Below are positions 40,167-51,290 of a stretch of 64,000 bases of DNA, one piece after another (positions within the stretch are counted from its first letter, which is position 1; each line of letters opens with the position of its first letter). Source of the DNA: Lophium mytilinum (taxonomy: Eukaryota); the NCBI GenBank assembly GCA_010093605.1, contig MU004195.1, forward strand, positions 744,001 through 808,000. Direction: 5' to 3'. The translations under genes and the position numbers were made by a program. The notes beneath the pieces are model-generated. The model did no database searches, had not been told where the DNA came from, and saw only the letters and a list, made by a program, of their open reading frames with translations.

Positions 40167-42549
40167 CTACCAAGCATACCTATCGTTCTCATTCTCTTCG
40201 TTACCGTCCCAATCTTCGTCTCCGCTTACCTCAGAGTCCAAGAAGTCACCCTCATCGAACAAATCTTCTCGAGGTCGGAGGTTGTCGATGCGGATATCCA
40301 CCACACGACATCTGCCCTGAACGTATTTTTCGACGATCACATCTTGGGGTGAATCTGTATCGTTCTCGCTCTCGGAAGTTCGAACGCGGCTGCGCAGACG
40401 TTTCGTACCCCACGTGTCGTCTGAACCCCGAGTCTGTCGCCTGCGAGCACCCCTAGGTAAGATGGGAGCATCACTGTCTGTATCCTCTAGTGCATCACTT
40501 TGTGAGCTGATGTTTGCGGGTGTCGCCGCTTCATCTCCCTCGTCTTCGCTAACGGCTCCAATGGCGGTTGTAGCCCCGTTCGGGCCGGCTGCTTGCGAAG
40601 CCTTCCATTCTCTGAAAGCACGCAAGGATACCAAGTGGTCACTGGGTGGCGCAGGTCGTTCGAGGAATACCGTCTTGAACCGCGGAATCCATTCGTCACG
40701 GAAAGCGGCTCGCTCGCGCCAGTTCACGTCTACCATAGCCTTCAATACGAGTTCGCGAAGGTCCGGAAGCTCTGCCGCGGAGTTGATCAGTGACTTGAAG
40801 AATGTCTTGGCGGCAGGCGCAGACCACTTTCGCAGGTAAACGAGGTCCAGGACTTGCAGAGTGGAGGGCCAAGACGGTACCTCTTCCTCTGTGAGAAGCT
40901 CGTCGTACTTGGGATCTGCGTCTCGTGATGTGGTGAATGTGGAGTAGTAGTTGAGGTCCATCCTAAGAACTTCCAGCCGAGGGCATGAGTGCTTGAGGTC
41001 AGGCAAGAACGACAAGTTGAGGGTTTGGTTGTGGTTCAGGATTAGTTCCTCTAGCTGATTTCCATGGGTGAGAAGATATGCCCCCAGTACTTCCGAAGTA
41101 AGCATCCCACAGTTAGCAATCGTTAACGAGACGAGCATGTCTGGGAGTAACGGAAGGAGAATATTGTTAACGGCTGTACACGACACGAAGGAGAGAGCCC
41201 GAAGGCTGGGGAGAGTGGCTAGAGCTGATGCCAGAAGTTCCTCTTGGGTGGGCTGGTCTTCCACGTCCGCTGCAGGATCCTTTGCCCGTGGTGACTCCCA
41301 TTTTGGGTCCTGTGGAAAGTTTGTGAGAACCAAGTCTCGAAGACTTTGGAAGGACGCCTGTCCATGGATGTCCTTCATTCGTAGCATACTCGTGGAATTG
41401 ATAGTTTCCGTAAGCAGGAAATGATTCCACGTCCAGCCCTTCAACCTTGCTCCACTCTGATCCAAACCCGTGAAGAGTGCGGGAGGGTAGTGTCTACTGG
41501 CGGACTGACGCACAGCTACTTGCGATTGTCTATACGGTGGCCGATCGTGGGGGTCGAATATGTCGATCTCTTTGAGAGTCCTCAAGGGCGTAATAAGAGC
41601 TCCTAGATCTAACTCCGCGCGGCCTGTTGGGGACCGACGTGGCATCTTGGTAACGTCCAGCTCCAGACGCTTGACCATGACTTGGTAGTCTCTGTCTTCT
41701 GACGTGGGCGTTTGCGATAGAGTCTGCAGTAGCTTGTTCCTCCTATCCTTAGGTAAGACGAAGAGCGGCGGGTTGCGATAGAGCGCAGTCAGTGCGGGTT
41801 TGGTGAATTCGAGGTGCATCCGGGCCATATGGAGAAGCCAAGGTACTGCAGAAGTCGGAGAAAGGCCATCGTAGAGGGGATGAGAGGCATAGACAAATAT
41901 TTGCAACAGGACAGCGTATGGAAGCGCCGCCAAATTAGGTATCTTGCCGTCCGTCACGAGTGGTTTGGTCTTGAGGGGAGCCTTGGTTTGAGGATCTGAA
42001 CGTTTGGTGATTCGACCTGCGATTTGAAGTTAGGACTAGTTGTTACGGCTGGATTAAGCTGGCGGAGTGTTGCTTCGGCTTACCTAGGGCTTTCCGAGGG
42101 GTCCTGTTGCGCCGGGTCGTTTTCACATACTCTACATAATCGCCTTCGAAGTTTGCGTCATCATGGCGAGCTGCTGCCTTGACTCTGGCTGGCTTGTTCC
42201 GTGACCGTGTCGCTTTGCGCTGGACCGTCGCCACCTCATTTGTATAGTCACCCTCAGAGTCGTCTTCTGAGCTCGGCTCCTTGTATGATTGAGGATGTTG
42301 ACGGCGCGACCTGCCTGCTTTCTGGGGTGACTGCGACGGGGTGGTGCGTGGGGTCTTGCGGCTCCGGAGTGTGAGTTGTGGTTGCGACTGCGACTGCAAA
42401 TGCGCAATGCGCCTAGTCTCGCGGTGGGCGACAGCTGGCAGCTCCTCGTTGGCAGAGTCGGCCTCGGAATCAGGAGGGGTGTCTTCATCACTGCTCGGTT
42501 CGCGGTAGGATATGAAGGCGCGCTTGCGCTTCAGGTTGCGGGTCACCAT
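40167..42549 (-). CDS. Fungal F-box-like/LRR (RNI-like) protein with basic N-terminus
   Basis: MVTRNLKRKR exon spliced (GTAAGC...CTAAC...CAG) into LAALPYAVLLQIF and LxxLxL repeats (LEELILNHN, LEVLRMDL, LRELVLK). Confidence 0.8.
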
Positions 42550-43815
42550 GGTTTCTATGACATGCCGGAGATAGGGCGGAGGAGATGATGGCCGTCCAGC
42601 AGCAGGAGTGGCCGATCGAATGGAGTCGAAGGTGAGAGGGCCGCCTGCGGTGTGTCGAGGTCTCCAGAAAAGCGAATCCAGAAAGTTGGGGAGAGGTTGG
42701 GAAAACAAAGAGGGTGATGGTTGTGGGTGCTGCGCGCAGTCAGTGACGATGGCACTTGCATCAAATATTTAGCGCTAGTGCAGATCCCGGTCGGTTAAGT
42801 GCACCGCCAAGACATACTGCATATGCTTCAAACGTCCTCACCATCTCATTTGGGGGTTGTCTTTCTGATTCGGCACAGAAAAAGTATCTAGGTTGATTAT
42901 ATAGTAATTCGAGAGTAGCTCAAGTAACGCTAAGGGAACGCTCACACTTGAGAAACAGCAGAAGGTCGTCCTGTCTCCAAATTTAGTTTCGACACCTTGC
43001 AGAACCGAAGTTGCGCTCAAGCCGACATTTCAGTTTTGAGAGTATCCAGTTGATGTGACAAACAATGCGTCTTCTCGCTGTGCATGAGCGATAATACCTA
43101 GGCTTGAAGTTTAGCCCTTCCCTCTTCGGGACGTCACGCTTAAGCGGCTTAGTCATGGTCAATCTGCTTGGCTCTCGTTTGCCAGCCGGCGCGTCAGAAA
43201 CAACATTGGAACCTCCTGTAAGTCGCCGCGTGCAAGCTCACCAGCAACCTCTCCTCTGTCTCTTTGTCTGTACGAATTCTATAGCTCCCTCACCGCTCGC
43301 CGTCTCGGCGCGCATCTCTGATTGTCCATTGTGTGCGCCGACATTTTCAGGAAGAGCTGGTCAAGCTTTCGCGGCAGTCTTCTGTTCAGAAATCTGCACT
43401 TTCTATCGTGGCGCGGAGGTTGTAGTGAAGGCGCCCTCATTTTCTGGGACTGCGGTAGCCACTCCTCACTGGATTTGCGCCATTAGCGCACATGCCACCT
43501 CAGGAACCCCATCAATATCTCCATTGACCTTTTGGGTGGGCATGCACTGTCGCATTCACCATCAAAGTCCTCAGGGTGCTTGGTTGCAACAGCTCTGCGC
43601 TGCGGCCGTCTACTCGCCATCCTCGTGACAGGACTTCATCTGGCGACCCCCACCTTCACCGCAAGAAGAAGATCACTTCTATCTCACAAGAAAAACACCT
43701 ACGCCGTTCTCTGTCGCGTCATGACCTCCTCTCAGTCACTTGATCACCACACTACTGCTCACGGCGCTCTCATCATCGAAACCGAGTCCTCCCCAGTCTC
43801 ATTCACGGCGATAGC

Positions 43816-46222
43816 ATGGTGATCACGCAAACCCCCGAATTTAAGAACTTTTTTGGAAATTCCTGCCTGTATTTGACTTTGAAGGAGTCGAGGAACAGAA
43901 CTTTTTTGTCCAGAAACCTTGAGGCTGTTCTGGACCATCATCAACGACGACTTGAGAACCCAACTCTCGCCGACACGACAGAAACGCGCGCTCTCACACG
44001 GCGCCATTGGCAATACCCTTCTGACGGTATGGACGACTTGTTGCAGAGCTTTGAGAACGGAGAGATCCTTGAGGTTTCTGTCCGAGGGTTTTGGCCTGTA
44101 GACCCTTCATCGAAAAAGAAAGCATCAAAGAAAATCGCAGTCGGCCCGAAGGCGAGAGAGGCGATATGGGACGCGCTCGAACATGCCGAAAACATTATTA
44201 AACAGCCTTGTCGGGTCAGACTTGCAATTGCAATAGTCGAGCCTGATGAGACCAAGACTATACCTCTGGGCGACAGATGCAAGATTCTCTACTCTACCGA
44301 GCATGCCGCATCTATCAGCGGAAAACAGAACAAAGGTGGCCAGCGATTTCTGAAAATCGATGTGGAACCGTTCCGAGTAGACATTCCTACCCTGACGGTC
44401 CCAAAATCTAACGGCGTACGATGGAAGAACGCCATAGGAGCCAAGTACGAAACTACAATAGGTATATCTCCTATGGACAGCAGGAAAGCGGACGAGCTGC
44501 TACGCTTCTTAAAGCCCAACAGCGAGTTTAGTCGATACGATAAAGCTGCTTTTTCTGGAAAATGGAACGACCTACCACAGCTTCCTTTTAACGGGCAGAT
44601 GATCCCTGTCTACCGGAAAACTAGCGAGGGGCGGATGAAGTTTGAACATGAGATCGATTTCGAGATGGCTTTTACAAAAAGCCAGGTGTCGCCAATCGCA
44701 CTATATAATCAGTCTTCAAAGCGGGCCCGGCCAAACCAGCTCCCTTCGCCAGTCTCGGAAACAAGGCTTCTCGACGAGATGACCGAGGTGACGTACAGAC
44801 TGATTAATGGCAATGCTTCCAAGGTCATGACCTATACCGACAACACGTGTCTCTTTTGTGAGAAGATGACTCTACCAAACAGCGAAAGGTTGCACCATCA
44901 CCTTAAGACACATCATGACAACTACGATTTCGGGGTTGAAACACAGCAGAAGGAGCGAGGTGCAGCGACACTGACTGAAGTTACGATTCTCGTTGAGCTT
45001 TCTGAGAAAAGGGAGGACGTAAGAGCAAGTGACTCAGTACCTGATACGCGCGCCGTCAGTTGGGTCGCACCAGAGGAGCCTTTCAACCTAGCTGAGTCAA
45101 ACAAGGGCAACTCGGACTGGGTAGCAAAAGGTTCTTACCATGGGAAGAGAAAGGCACCCAAGCCTGTCTTTCGGCAGATCAAACCTAAGGAGCCAGAAGA
45201 GGTCCTACAGCAGCTACCTGCTCCCATTAGAAAGAGGCACAAAGTTCCTCCCGCTCCAAGGGGCATAACGTTCTTCCGGACCCTGTCAAAACGTCCTTTG
45301 GAAGAGGGTGAATCGGCCAGTGAGAGTGACGACGATATAGACATAACTTGGCTTAAACTCAGACGGAACGGCGCAACAAGCGATTCAGATACTCCTGAAT
45401 CGGCCAAAACTCTCATCAAACGGCTAGATGATCATATGGAAGATGAGCAGCTAACAGACGACTTGCACGTTGGTGATGCTATTGTTCGATTCACCTCCCA
45501 AAATCGCGAGTGGTTGCAGGAATCAGATCATGCCCAGCAGCTCTTGAAGAAAGCAGCAGAACTTCGAGACGATGATATCATCACAGAAGCTGTGTATCAG
45601 CACTGCAAAAAGATCACGCAAATGGATCCAGTCGAAAGTAGCAAGAGTAGATTACATAACAGGACGATGGGCTTATGTTCAACGCCACCACGAACACCAG
45701 CTACATCCTCAGCAAGTTTCAGTTCTGTGGATGCAGAACCCAGAAAGCGCAAGAGATCAAATACAAAAGGGCGCGGACCTTCTCAGCCACAGGACACCGA
45801 CGGAGATGTTGAGATGTCAGAGCCAAGTCCGCCAGACAGTCGACAGCTGAGTAAAGACCGTGGACAGTCACGTACCCTTGTCAACGGCAGATGCCTATGT
45901 GGTGAGCAAGCTGAAGCGGTTGACAATTTGCGTGAGATCATCTGGTGCGACAATCCTGTAAGTTTGATCTCGTCTCTCATACACTTTCATCATGTTACAC
46001 AAGCCTGAGAGCGTTGTTACACCAAAATTCTCATCTTATTTCTCTGTTCATACGTTTCTCGCCGCCTTCAGTCATGATCAGAATTCCATCACTAACTCAT
46101 TTCATCAGCACTGTGTCCGCCACTGCTTCCACATTAAATGCGTCGGCCTGCCCAGACGATGCCGCGGTTGGGCTTGTGACGATTGCAAAAAGGACGAGAC
46201 TCTATGGCCGACAAAGGACTAG
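43816..46222 (+). CDS. SUZ12: Polycomb PRC2 subunit SUZ12 (C2H2 Zn finger + VEFS-like box) with C-terminal PHD finger
   Basis: RTFLSRNL N-terminal motif; CLFC...LHHHLKTHH; FFRTLSKRPLEEGESASESDDDIDITWL. Intron 45958-46108 completes the PHD. Confidence 0.8.
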
Positions 46223-47693
46223 TCCCCAATTATACGTTCGCAAAGTGAGGGCGGTGGAGATTGATGCTGATTGAACAGAGGGGGAATAAGTATCGCATCG
46301 GACACCTCCCCTATCTACCCAAGCTTTGCTCATTGACTTCTTAGGGGGACGGCGGCGGACTTTCTGCATTTGCATCTTCTTTTTTTCTTTTGTCTAGCTT
46401 CAGCATGCGCCGGCGTTTGGGGGAGAGGAGTACGAAGCATATTAACACGGCGTGGGTTGGGTGGTTCCCATCTCTTGGACGAGGTGGGGCTTTTACTGCT
46501 TTGCTTACTTGATGGACCGGATAGTTGCTCGAGGGTGAGAGGAGGTGCTTCACAGTTGACTAAATAGAATATGATTACCACTTGAGCTGCAAATCCCGTC
46601 CTTCTGCGATGGGAAGTGATAGGGTTTCAGTTTGAAAGGCCCGTGAAAGCTGAAAAGCCCATTCCAGGCTGTCGCAACTCCGTGCGGCCCTATCCTTACG
46701 CTCAAATTCCCGTAATTTTCGCCTCTCGCCACGCTTCGATCATTTTGTATACTGAGGCCTTTCAGATCATGGCGAATAGAAGTCGAGACGCAAATCTCTC
46801 AAGGCACCTTTTAGAAAGTAGTCTGTATTGACTTGAACATATGCTGTCCATATATGATCTTCTCCGGTATTCAGTATCAGCTTGACAAGGACTGATTCCT
46901 TGATCCGTTTGTCCCCAGATCATGTTGACAGAAGTTGGTTGTATCAATGCTATCACAATTCTCGGTAACTACCGGAACACCCCTCCACTCAATGTTCAAG
47001 TACTCCCATTGCAGCCAATTTTCCAATCATCTTTCTGTTTCTCGACAACGAATCTCTCCCCAAGCCACAACGCACTCAAATCGAAACACCCACTCTTCCC
47101 AACAGCCTCTTAGTTGTACCTGTGTACAGCTACGCATTCTAACAGCCTAAAGTTTCCAGGTGACATAATGGCTTCCCCAACAGTGCTACCAATGCCAGGT
47201 CTTTCCCCATAAGGACACTTGGAAAGCCTGATTATTTTTCCCCAAGCCCTCCATCTGCAACCTTCCCCAAACGGCTGACACCTGTGACCCTCGTGCCACA
47301 GAGGCAGCTGACAGGCCACATGAGTGACGGGAACGAGCCGTCTGCTCGTGGCACCAACAGCCTGGGCGTACCATCTAACCCGATTCGAACGGGTATCTAA
47401 CCACACCCTAACCACGACGTGTGACGCAGGACCCGAAAAGAGAAAACGCTACAAAACACAGCTACGTACCCTCAAGCCTTGCCGCAAAGCCTTTGCAACA
47501 GAAGAACCGGAAAATGGATGCAACGACGGCTGGGATGCTTTCGGTCGTGTTAATAGGAGAAAATGGGGTATAAGAACGACGTCCGTGACGCTTTCGAGAA
47601 TCCCATCCTGCTCTAGGAGAACAGTCGTTCCCGCTTCTTTCTCTCTCCACTTTCGTTTGCAGTCCGACCCAGGTCGATTCGACTCAAGACAAG

Positions 47694-48784
47694 ATGAAAT
47701 TCTCCCTCTTTGCTCTCATTCAGCTTTCGCTTCTCGCCCTCGCCCACCCCAACCGCTTGAACGAACCGATCCACCGCCCTCGCGCCGCGGCGAGCTCAAA
47801 CTCCACCAGCGCCGTCTCGACGTCCGGCATCATCCTCAGCACGGGCACTTCCTTCCCCACCAGCGTGATCCTCAGCACCGGCATCTCCATCCCCACCAGC
47901 ATCATCCTTAGCACTGGCCCTACCCCCTCCAACACCACCACCAGCACGCCCCCCTTCGCCAACACCACCTTCTTCGAGTCATATGCCACCACCACCACCT
48001 CCTCCTCCTCCTTCTCTTCCTCCTCCTCCTCCTCTCTCACCTCCTCAACCCCCTCCCCCTCACCAACCGCCCCCGGCCCCGTGTCCTTCAAACTCCGCAC
48101 CGCCCTCCGCCCCACCTCTCCCTCCAACCCCTCCCCCCCGCACCACCTCGCCAACCTCTACCTCACCACCTTCCACACCGGCGCCGGCACGTCCGACCCC
48201 GTGTTCGCTGCCTCGAGCTCCACGACTTTCTACCTCAACAACACGTCTAGCGGCGGGGGTTACGGCGGCGGCACCGCGGAGACGGTGCTGCAGGTCGCGA
48301 ACCCCGCGGGGTACATCTGGGGTTTCCAGTTCACGTTCTGGCCGTACACGGGATGGGGGGATGTGACGCTGGATGTGAGTAAGGAGGCGGCGGGGGGGTG
48401 GGTGGTTGCGGTGGTGGAGATGGGAGGGGGGAGTGAGATGGAGGCGGGGCGGGTGAGGGAGGAGGTGGTGGTGAGGTATGAGGGGAGTGGGACGGGGGTG
48501 GGGGGTGGGTGGCTTGGTGAGTGATTTTTTTCCATCTTCTTGTTTTGGGGTTTGATGGTTAGGGGATGAAAGCGAAGGCTAATTCCACCCACCCCTAGTG
48601 TGTGACTGGTGGCACGCGGTCCCGCAGTTGTTTTTCCGTGATCCGTATCGCGACCCGAAGTTCTATCCGGCGCCGAAGAGCTGTGCGGAGGTGGAGTTGG
48701 TGATGGAGTTTGTGGGGGATGGGGATATTACTGTGGGGGGTTGAAAGAGGGTTAGAGAAGGGTGGGCTGGGCAGGTTTAAGTAG
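47694..48784 (+). CDS. Secreted protein with Ser/Thr-rich stalk and conserved-looking C-terminal domain
   Basis: Signal peptide MKFSLFALIQLSLLALA; YLTTFHTGAGTSDPVF. Intron 48517-48598 gives GWLVCDWWHAVPQLF...SCAEVELV. Confidence 0.8.
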
Positions 48785-49853: not shown

Positions 49854-51290
49854 CTAATCGCTCTCGTCCATTAAAGCCGCCAACTCCGCCTCCTCCTCCA
49901 CCGTCATCAGACTCTTCTTTCCCTTCTCCTCCTCCTTCACCACACCTTCTTTCTCTTCGTCATCTTCCTTCCTAACCCTCTCAAATTCCCCTTGACTAAG
50001 TTCCCAGCTCCTCACCGTCCCATCAATCCCCACACTTACCACCTTGCCCCCCCAAATCACGACTCCAGTAACCTCCTCATAGTGTCCTGCTAGCACAATC
50101 ACACACTTCCCACTCCCTGAATCCCACACTCTGACCTCCTCATCCCTACATGCTGTCACAACCCACCCCTTCCCCTCGTCCACAGCGACAGCCCGCACGA
50201 AATCAGGGTGCGGGAACGTGGTGTCTGGGGCGAAATTCTGAGTCCGGGAGAGAATCTGGGCGGATTTGTCCGAAGATGCGGTGAAGAGGTCGCCAGAAGG
50301 GGAGAAAGTAAGCTGGTTTATAGAGGTTTCGTGTGGCGTATGGGGGTCGTTCGGGTCGCTGGTTACCGAGATCGTTGATTTCAAGGTGGAATCCGAAGAC
50401 GGGGTAGCGGTTATCGTCCACCGCCTGATCTCGCGATCACTGCCTGCGCTGAACACAATCACGCTCTCCGACTCTGTACTCTTCGTCTTGGATGGATTAT
50501 CGAGGGAATCAGCTAGACTTAGGGAATTAACAGCTAGACTCAACACCCCCCTCGCATGCCCCTTGAGGGTTTGCAGCGCCTCTCCGGTTTCAACGTCCCA
50601 AATGATGATGGTAGCGTCTGCGGCCCCGCTGAAGAGTAGCTCGCGCCCGCCGAGCGAGACACATACGACGCACTTTACGAAGTCGGTGTGGCCTACGAAG
50701 CGGCGGCCAGGTGCGCGGGTAGCGGTAGACCAGGACCATATTGTTTTATCCCAGCAGCCGGCGAAGAGAGTGCGGGGGGAGCGGGTAGTGGAGAGGCAGA
50801 GGGAGGTGAGGGGGGCCATAGGGCCGGTGAAGGGGGTCGTAGTTTTGCTCTGGGGGGATGTTAGTCGTGATTATGATGATGATGTTTAATAAGCGGAGTG
50901 TATAGGACAATATACAGCAAGGAATCCAACTGTTCTCTTTTAGGGAATAATAGAGACAGGACTAGGGTAGAAGCTGTGTGCGGAACGATAGAAAGAGCGT
51001 ATAACTAAACATCTTACCCACTTCAAGCACAATCCTCCTCACCACCCCCGCCGCCTCGGCTACATACACCGCACCTTCATTGTCTAGATCCGGGATGATT
51101 GCCAGCAACTTGCTTGTAAGCTTGATTGGGTTTCCCTTCTTATTCTTCGACTTTGATGCCTTGCGCGTCCCCTCGTCGATGGAAGCTCTATTCACGCACA
51201 GTTTAGCTTCTAATACACCTAAGAGTTCACAAGCTGATTAGAAGCTCACGTAGTCTGGAAGAAATGCCCGGGGTCGGTAGAGCGCGACAT
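49854..51290 (-). CDS. WD40-repeat protein
   Basis: MSRSTDPGHFFQT first exon; GCWDKTIWSW, GHTDFVKCV, GAADATIIIWD, GHARGV and GHYEEV...DGTVRSW repeats. Confidence 0.9.

Follow-up and report, generated by a model that had tools for sequence, protein, structure and literature searches.

The SUZ12 locus and its transcript

The 64,000-nt stretch of Lophium mytilinum DNA analyzed here (the window) carries, on its forward strand, a two-exon SUZ12 gene whose product ends in a PHD finger. The reading frame opens with an ATG at 43816, where homologues begin at the same Met, and its unspliced form stays open as far as a stop at 46008. Exon 1 (43816..45957) encodes aa 1-714. It is followed by a 151-nt, phase 0 intron (45958..46108) with a GTAAGT donor at 45958, an ACTAAC branch at 46091 and a CAG acceptor ending at 46108; the GC content of this intron is 0.40, versus 0.49 and 0.56 in the exons. 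Exon 2 (46109..46222) adds 37 codons, aa 715-751, and the stop, giving a spliced product of 751 aa.

One transcript-like contig (43216..46542, +) joins 43216-45957 to 46109-46542 with no mismatches and a depth of 171, omitting exactly these 151 GT..AG bases. It comprises a 600-nt leader, the two exons and 320 nt past the stop, and its ends are not to be equated with true transcript ends. The source is one run from one study, used as Logan contigs only; its kind, listed as “RNA?”, is a guess, and it may be material behind the assembly's own annotation. Within the 12.5 kb examined, the same run omits three further GT-AG-type introns nearby on the minus strand, and because these are skipped as well, the run behaves as RNA. 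The spliced SUZ12-PHD form exists in the contigs of this run, which do not give its share of the message. The intron predicted by the initial annotation is thus borne out by a contig joint at the exact 151 nt, as well as by orthologs annotated as spliced, and the same evidence rules out the unspliced protein ending at 46008. Nor is the PHD a product of chance, as public annotation gives this spliced finger to the orthologs of Mytilinidion resinicola (Dothideomycetes; at 85% identity, the closest named protein) and Glonium stellatum too.

The leader and the first bases of the coding region (43216-43822, +) also contain three upstream ATGs, at 43492, 43542 and 43721, which open frames of 11, 28 and 33 codons, respectively. 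The last is out of frame, has G at -3 and ends at 43822, overlapping the SUZ12 main start. It is possible that these upstream ATGs dampen SUZ12 translation.

On the other side of the leader lies a divergent neighbor (40167-42549, -) of two exons, the first encoding basic low-complexity sequence and the second leucine-rich-repeat-like sequence. Its contig (39826-42723) skips a 67-nt intron near 42014-42082 and ends ~490 nt from that of SUZ12. Downstream are a Ser/Thr-rich protein with DUF7907 (47589-48524, +; 46.5 bits) and a WD40 protein (49854-50870, -), neither of which showed a link to SUZ12-PHD.

Domain anatomy of the SUZ12-PHD protein

The identification of the gene as SUZ12 in the initial annotation is upheld by both profile and fold. 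The VEFS-Box (PF09733) matches aa 486-599 (45271..45612, +) with 29.5 bits against a Pfam cut-off of 23. An AlphaFold2 model of the M. resinicola ortholog, built with a 71-sequence alignment, finds SUZ12 chains of solved PRC2 as its top fold matches. Its VEFS region aligns with that of human SUZ12 (5hyn_C; Z 15.0, rmsd 2.9, 123 aligned), its N-terminal region with the SUZ12 N-lobe (6nq3, Z 11.3, rmsd 4.0, 133 aligned; 5wak_B, Z 11.2, rmsd 3.0, 110 aligned), and C2 domains are matched at Z 7-8.7. This is also the genome's sole VEFS match (1 match, 1 candidate), and first-look searches, whose counts are lower bounds, found no second SUZ12 copy without a PHD in the genome. In this Mytilinidiales-like Dothideomycete, the gene is the single SUZ12 ortholog and encodes a PRC2 scaffold via its VEFS box.

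From N- to C-terminus, the protein features a C2 domain, a Zn finger, the VEFS box, a disordered linker of ~70 aa and a Cys4-His-Cys3 PHD. The C2 domain (~aa 72-288; 44030..44680, +) is placed approximately, by transfer from aa 75-291 of the M. resinicola model. The C2H2-type SUZ12 Zn finger spans C345 to H367 (44848..44916, +); the Zn_SUZ12 model (PF23320) scores only 14.3 bits here, below its cut-off of 28, and 27.8-28.9 bits in homologues P0005 and P0006, and the ligands are at least 90% conserved in 71 sequences (from the best 150 of 737 matches). In the M. resinicola model, the core is mostly structured to aa 618, aa 619-688 have pLDDT under 50, which delimits the linker here (~aa 616-688; 45661..45879, +), and the finger has pLDDT 83-95. 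With a pTM of 0.45, the model leaves the relative placement of the domains undefined. A complex prediction of the M. resinicola PHD (690-749) with its own core (1-618), run with neither alignments nor folded controls, scored 0.00 twice and weighs neither for nor against contact between them.

The intron divides the finger in two. Its first half (45892..45957, +) holds ligands C693, C695 and C711, with G691 and R692 just before, R706 at 45931-45933, I708, W710 and D712; its second half, in exon 2, holds C716, H722, C725, C737 and C740, with R718 at 46118-46120, R731 at 46157-46159 and C720. All eight ligands of a PHD are present, together with the aromatic residue two positions ahead of the last Cys pair. 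The Pfam PHD model (PF00628) gave no match at E 0.1 in any of eight homologues scanned. By structure, the modeled finger matches PHD clusters at TM 0.65-0.72, while ESM Atlas feature matches for the finger alone were all below 0.9 and serve as leads only.

Human and Chaetomium thermophilum Suz12 share the C2, Zn finger and VEFS folds in the same order. The PHD part of the family profile matched none of the solved SUZ12 chains, and the human SUZ12 motifs listed in PMC10638273 include no PHD. By contrast, the Neurospora crassa protein (XP_963451.3) and MoSuz12 of Magnaporthe oryzae combine the same Zn finger, VEFS box and PHD.

The fusion is widespread among filamentous ascomycetes

We assembled 155 distinct homologues, comprising the best 150 of 737 profile matches and 9 word-index matches, and including the window's own read-through call; the set contains no named Sordariomycete or Leotiomycete, and word-index searches gave 9, 7 and 12 matches, again with no named Sordariomycete. 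By pattern, 71 of these proteins (best 150 of 737) have a whole PHD, 68 have its first half and 16 have none. Among the 84 without a whole finger, the 68 that retain Cys1, Cys2 and Cys3 carry Val four residues past Cys3 in 61 cases, compared with 1 of the 71 whole fingers. Because this Val would be the GT donor read in frame, the intron position is probably common to the family and most half fingers are probably gene-calling errors. The SUZ12 PHD is easily missed, with a Pfam model that stays silent and gene calls that are truncated at the donor. In a tree of 154 sequences (FFT-NS-2 and FastTree -fastest, midpoint root), which has weak deep support and served only to choose proteins for naming, whole and half fingers are interleaved.

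Thirty of the 155 homologues were looked up by name, and 16 carried a species name. Whole fingers occur in Mytilinidion, Zopfia, Aplosporella, Lineolata, Phyllosticta, Teratosphaeria, Fulvia, Rhizodiscina, Trichodelitschia, a Stagonospora-type cluster and Glonium, all of them Dothideomycetes, and further in Xylona (Xylonomycetes) and Trapelia (Lecanoromycetes). Pyrenula (Eurotiomycetes) and Sarea (Sareomycetes) have half fingers, Sclerophora a doubtful half pattern, Lepidopterella Cys1-Cys2 only, and Cirrosporium none. Across the family, the linker before the PHD ranges from ~16 to 325 aa.

The initial annotation had suggested a lineage-specific fusion, and this does not hold. In addition to the three classes with whole fingers above, the organization is in print for N. 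crassa and throughout Dothideomycetes, Leotiomycetes, Pezizomycetes and Sordariomycetes (PMC9018016, Table S8), the C2H2, VEFS and PHD domains of MoSuz12 are listed for M. oryzae (bioRxiv 10.1101/2021.04.20.440724), and several orthologs are already named PHD-type proteins in UniRef or NCBI. A SUZ12 with a C-terminal PHD is therefore already known in fungi, and the single locus is ordinary. Outside the fungi, PHD or RING-type fingers are likewise annotated in two VEFS proteins of Emiliania huxleyi (PMC9018016, Table S8, rows 128-129), perhaps as an independent fusion.

The finger resembles ING-family PHDs

With a profile of the 71-sequence family (best 150 of 737), E values run from 4e-14 to 4e-8 for ING-family chains and are no better than 6e-4 for any other PHD, and single SUZ12 fingers rank ING PHDs first, in the same order as the profile. 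The complete, ING-type Cys4-His-Cys3 finger described by the initial annotation is confirmed in both its ligands and this ranking. Similarity to the ING fingers (ING1-5, Yng1, Yng2, Pho23 and Png2) extends to a Cys3-x4-Cys4 spacing, a mostly Cys4-x5-His spacing, and FH and CVGL motifs. Unlike them, the SUZ12 finger is without the cage Tyr, Met and Trp, has Arg for Gly at Cys3-5 and has a loop before the conserved Trp that is one residue shorter; nor does SUZ12 have the ING helical domain.

Within the L. mytilinum genome, where the comparison covered 20 of 35 PF00628 matches as loci and nine chosen stretches, three ING genes give the highest single-domain scores with the family PHD profile (38.2, 35.7 and 31.9 bits), followed by a multi-finger protein (29.7 bits). 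All three ING PHDs retain Tyr, Met and Trp as well as the acid after Cys3. A separate locus (G000:C4:2446460-2452407) carries several ING-like fingers in tandem, each of which matches the same profile with 12-30 bits.

The best-matching ING gene splits its PHD with a 64-nt, phase-0 intron (G000:C1:1987849-1987912) located after Cys3+4; in SUZ12 the intron follows Cys3+3, one codon away. Such a near-match would fit capture from an ING gene with a one-codon shift, and is suggestive only. That the introns are one codon apart and not identical counts against capture.

Neither H3K4 pocket is conserved

The aromatic cage with which ING-type fingers read H3K4me3 consists of Tyr, Met and Trp (PMC4225485). 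In the window protein, these positions are R692, I708 and C720, as the initial annotation had observed, and in the 71 whole fingers (best 150 of 737) Tyr is kept in none, Met in one and Trp in one. The cage has thus been lost throughout the family. That the finger still reads H3K4me3 would suit its nearest relatives, the ING PHDs; on the cage residues we reject it as highly improbable.

A different H3 reading follows the initial annotation in its suggestion of a reader for unmethylated H3K4. The finger would recognize the H3 tail in its unmodified state (H3K4me0 or R2me0) and would steer PRC2 off H3K4me-marked chromatin. The residue two before Cys1, the K4me0 acid position, is G691 here, and is Asp or Glu in 19 of 71 relatives (best 150 of 737), compared with 15% acids in the adjacent linker. 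Close relatives P0003-P0007 do have Asp at this position, and the window protein has D712 at the R2-pocket position after Cys3, where 19 of 71 relatives (best 150 of 737) and 10 of 15 further PHDs from this genome have an acid; both H3-binding acids occur together in only 6 of 71 (best 150 of 737). In AIRE, the corresponding residues are D297, which reads unmethylated K4, and D312, which reads R2 (PMC2261226). BHC80 has D489 at the K4me0 acid position and the bulky M502 (PMC4225485), which W710, just before Cys3, resembles; that residue is variable in the family, with Ala in 21, Ile in 8, Ser in 7 and Trp in 6 of 71 (best 150 of 737). The Asp rule is not absolute, as K4me0 recognition by KDM5B PHD1 differs somewhat in mode (PMC4225485). 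However, relative to ING4, 48 of 71 fingers (best 150 of 737) lack one residue in the loop that precedes the conserved Trp, and this loop has no conserved Pro. Compared with AIRE PHD1, BHC80 PHD and KDM5B PHD1, the window finger shares the absence of a cage and the acid after Cys3, but the acid before Cys1 is missing here and unconserved in the family, and what is conserved is basic rather than acidic, like the H3 tail itself. Finally, the analogy with VIN3 drawn by the initial annotation cuts against an H3 reader, as the VIN3 PHD superdomain does not bind H3. On these residues, the H3K4me0 pocket appears not to be conserved in the SUZ12-PHD family, and we consider an unmodified-H3 reader doubtful.

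Conserved basic positions

Instead, the family keeps Arg or Lys at three non-ligand positions: Cys3-5 in 51, Cys4+2 in 58 and Cys7-6 in 56 of 71 fingers, with all three in 38 (best 150 of 737). The window protein has them all, as R706, R718 and R731. Among 15 further PHDs from this genome, caught by pattern and with one of them mis-anchored, the same positions are basic in 3, 2 and 2. Net charge varies from -4 to +9 with a family mean of +1.4 (71 from the best 150 of 737); the window finger has a net charge of 0, and 11 of the 15 other PHDs are negative. Some of the conserved Arg residues may be structural rather than parts of one surface patch, given that Arg also occupies Cys4+2 in the genome's EPR-1-like PHD, a poor match to the family profile (10.3 bits). 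R731 may simply be inherited, as it aligns to a Lys of ING4, and not to its Pro, in the HMMER register.

Proposed function of the finger

We tentatively favor the view that the ligand of the ING-derived finger is acidic, with DNA or RNA as the likeliest candidates, and is not H3K4. Under this proposal, a PHD would have been captured once from an ING-family gene into SUZ12, would have lost its H3K4me3 cage without gaining a conserved H3K4me0 pocket, and would have had basic residues fixed around its former peptide-binding face. The tethered finger would sample chromatin near the catalytic lobe and bind weakly, irrespective of sequence, to an acidic polymer, be it RNA or the DNA of nucleosomes or linkers, thereby prolonging PRC2 residence on chromatin. 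It would be a built-in substitute for the chromatin-binding accessory subunits missing in these fungi, namely PCL, AEBP2 and JARID2, none of which Fusarium or Neurospora has according to a table in PMC7348808, and would presumably be dispensable for catalysis. DNA or RNA is our first choice because of the analogy with VIN3 and BP1: the VIN3 PHD superdomain has a conserved basic surface, lacks H3-tail binding and binds polyanions (PMC9640981), and the PHD of Fusarium BP1 binds DNA (PMC8501951). The analogy is functional only. The VIN3/VEL and BP1/EPR-1 fingers are PRC2-linked and bind polyanion or DNA, with conserved basic residues in VIN3, but they belong to separate accessory proteins of other architecture, unlike a finger borne by SUZ12. 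The net charge of 0 in the finger of the window protein and the family range of -4 to +9 are modest for a DNA binder and count against this reading.

The same Arg residues could instead hold an acidic segment of a protein, such as EPR-1/BP1, PAS, another repressor or PRC2 itself, making the finger a protein-protein adaptor, a possibility we find somewhat unlikely. It would suit an acidic peptide that two of the three basic positions fall near the ends of the strand-pairing groove in alignments to ING4 and AIRE. In Fusarium, BP1 binds Suz12 directly, in a mapping that covers the BP1 side only (PMC8501951), and a BAH-PHD gene is present in the L. mytilinum genome, its EPR-1/BP1 kind being judged from architecture; these partners are candidates only. 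We consider it quite improbable that the finger contributes little or nothing to PRC2 targeting and is retained for a minor interaction or for folding or stability. Widely varying surface positions, the very variable linker and the 16 of 155 homologues (best 150 of 737) with no PHD by pattern would agree with such a role, as would solved Chaetomium PRC2 chimeras that are active, by their entry titles, with only the VEFS part of SUZ12. Against it, the finger is kept over several fungal classes at ~21-43% whole-protein identity, along with its intron and non-ligand Arg residues, and several of the 16 PHD-less homologues resemble fragments or mis-called ends. Binding of an acidic ligand by an ING-derived finger remains the reading we prefer.

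In Fusarium and Magnaporthe, SUZ12 orthologs assemble with EZH2 and EED and are required for H3K27me3. The L. mytilinum genome also has a CXC and SET gene that finds EZH2 as its closest match among solved structures. In this EZH2/Kmt6-like gene (G000:C2:1473714-1476842, minus), the His of the SET NHS motif is Asn (RFINNS versus RFANHS in human). The first exon of the genome's H3 gene has only 9 codons.

Significance

With PCL, JARID2 and AEBP2 absent, the way in which fungal PRC2 is directed to its targets is an open question (PMC7348808), and the fungal SUZ12 PHD has so far been an entry in domain inventories. The literature searched, which takes in few subscription papers, yielded no functional test of a fungal SUZ12 PHD; none appears in the available text of PMC7348808, PMC9720130, PMC10638273, bioRxiv 10.1101/2021.11.30.470311, PMC8501951, PMC10926671, PMC3814326 or PMC7886369. 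Nor did those sources yield a residue-level case for an ING-derived finger that does not read H3K4. What is new here is modest: a finger that is probably ING-derived and in which, across 71 orthologs (best 150 of 737), neither of the usual H3K4 pockets appears to survive. The three kept Arg positions are ready targets for point mutants. More speculatively, and as a rather unlikely proposal when taken in full, filamentous ascomycetes may have solved PRC2 targeting by capturing an H3K4me3-reading PHD from ING into SUZ12 and rewiring it as an Arg-lined module for DNA, RNA or an acidic partner, so that this easily overlooked, intron-split finger would take the place of the missing accessory subunit within SUZ12 itself and determine the placement or spread of H3K27 methylation.
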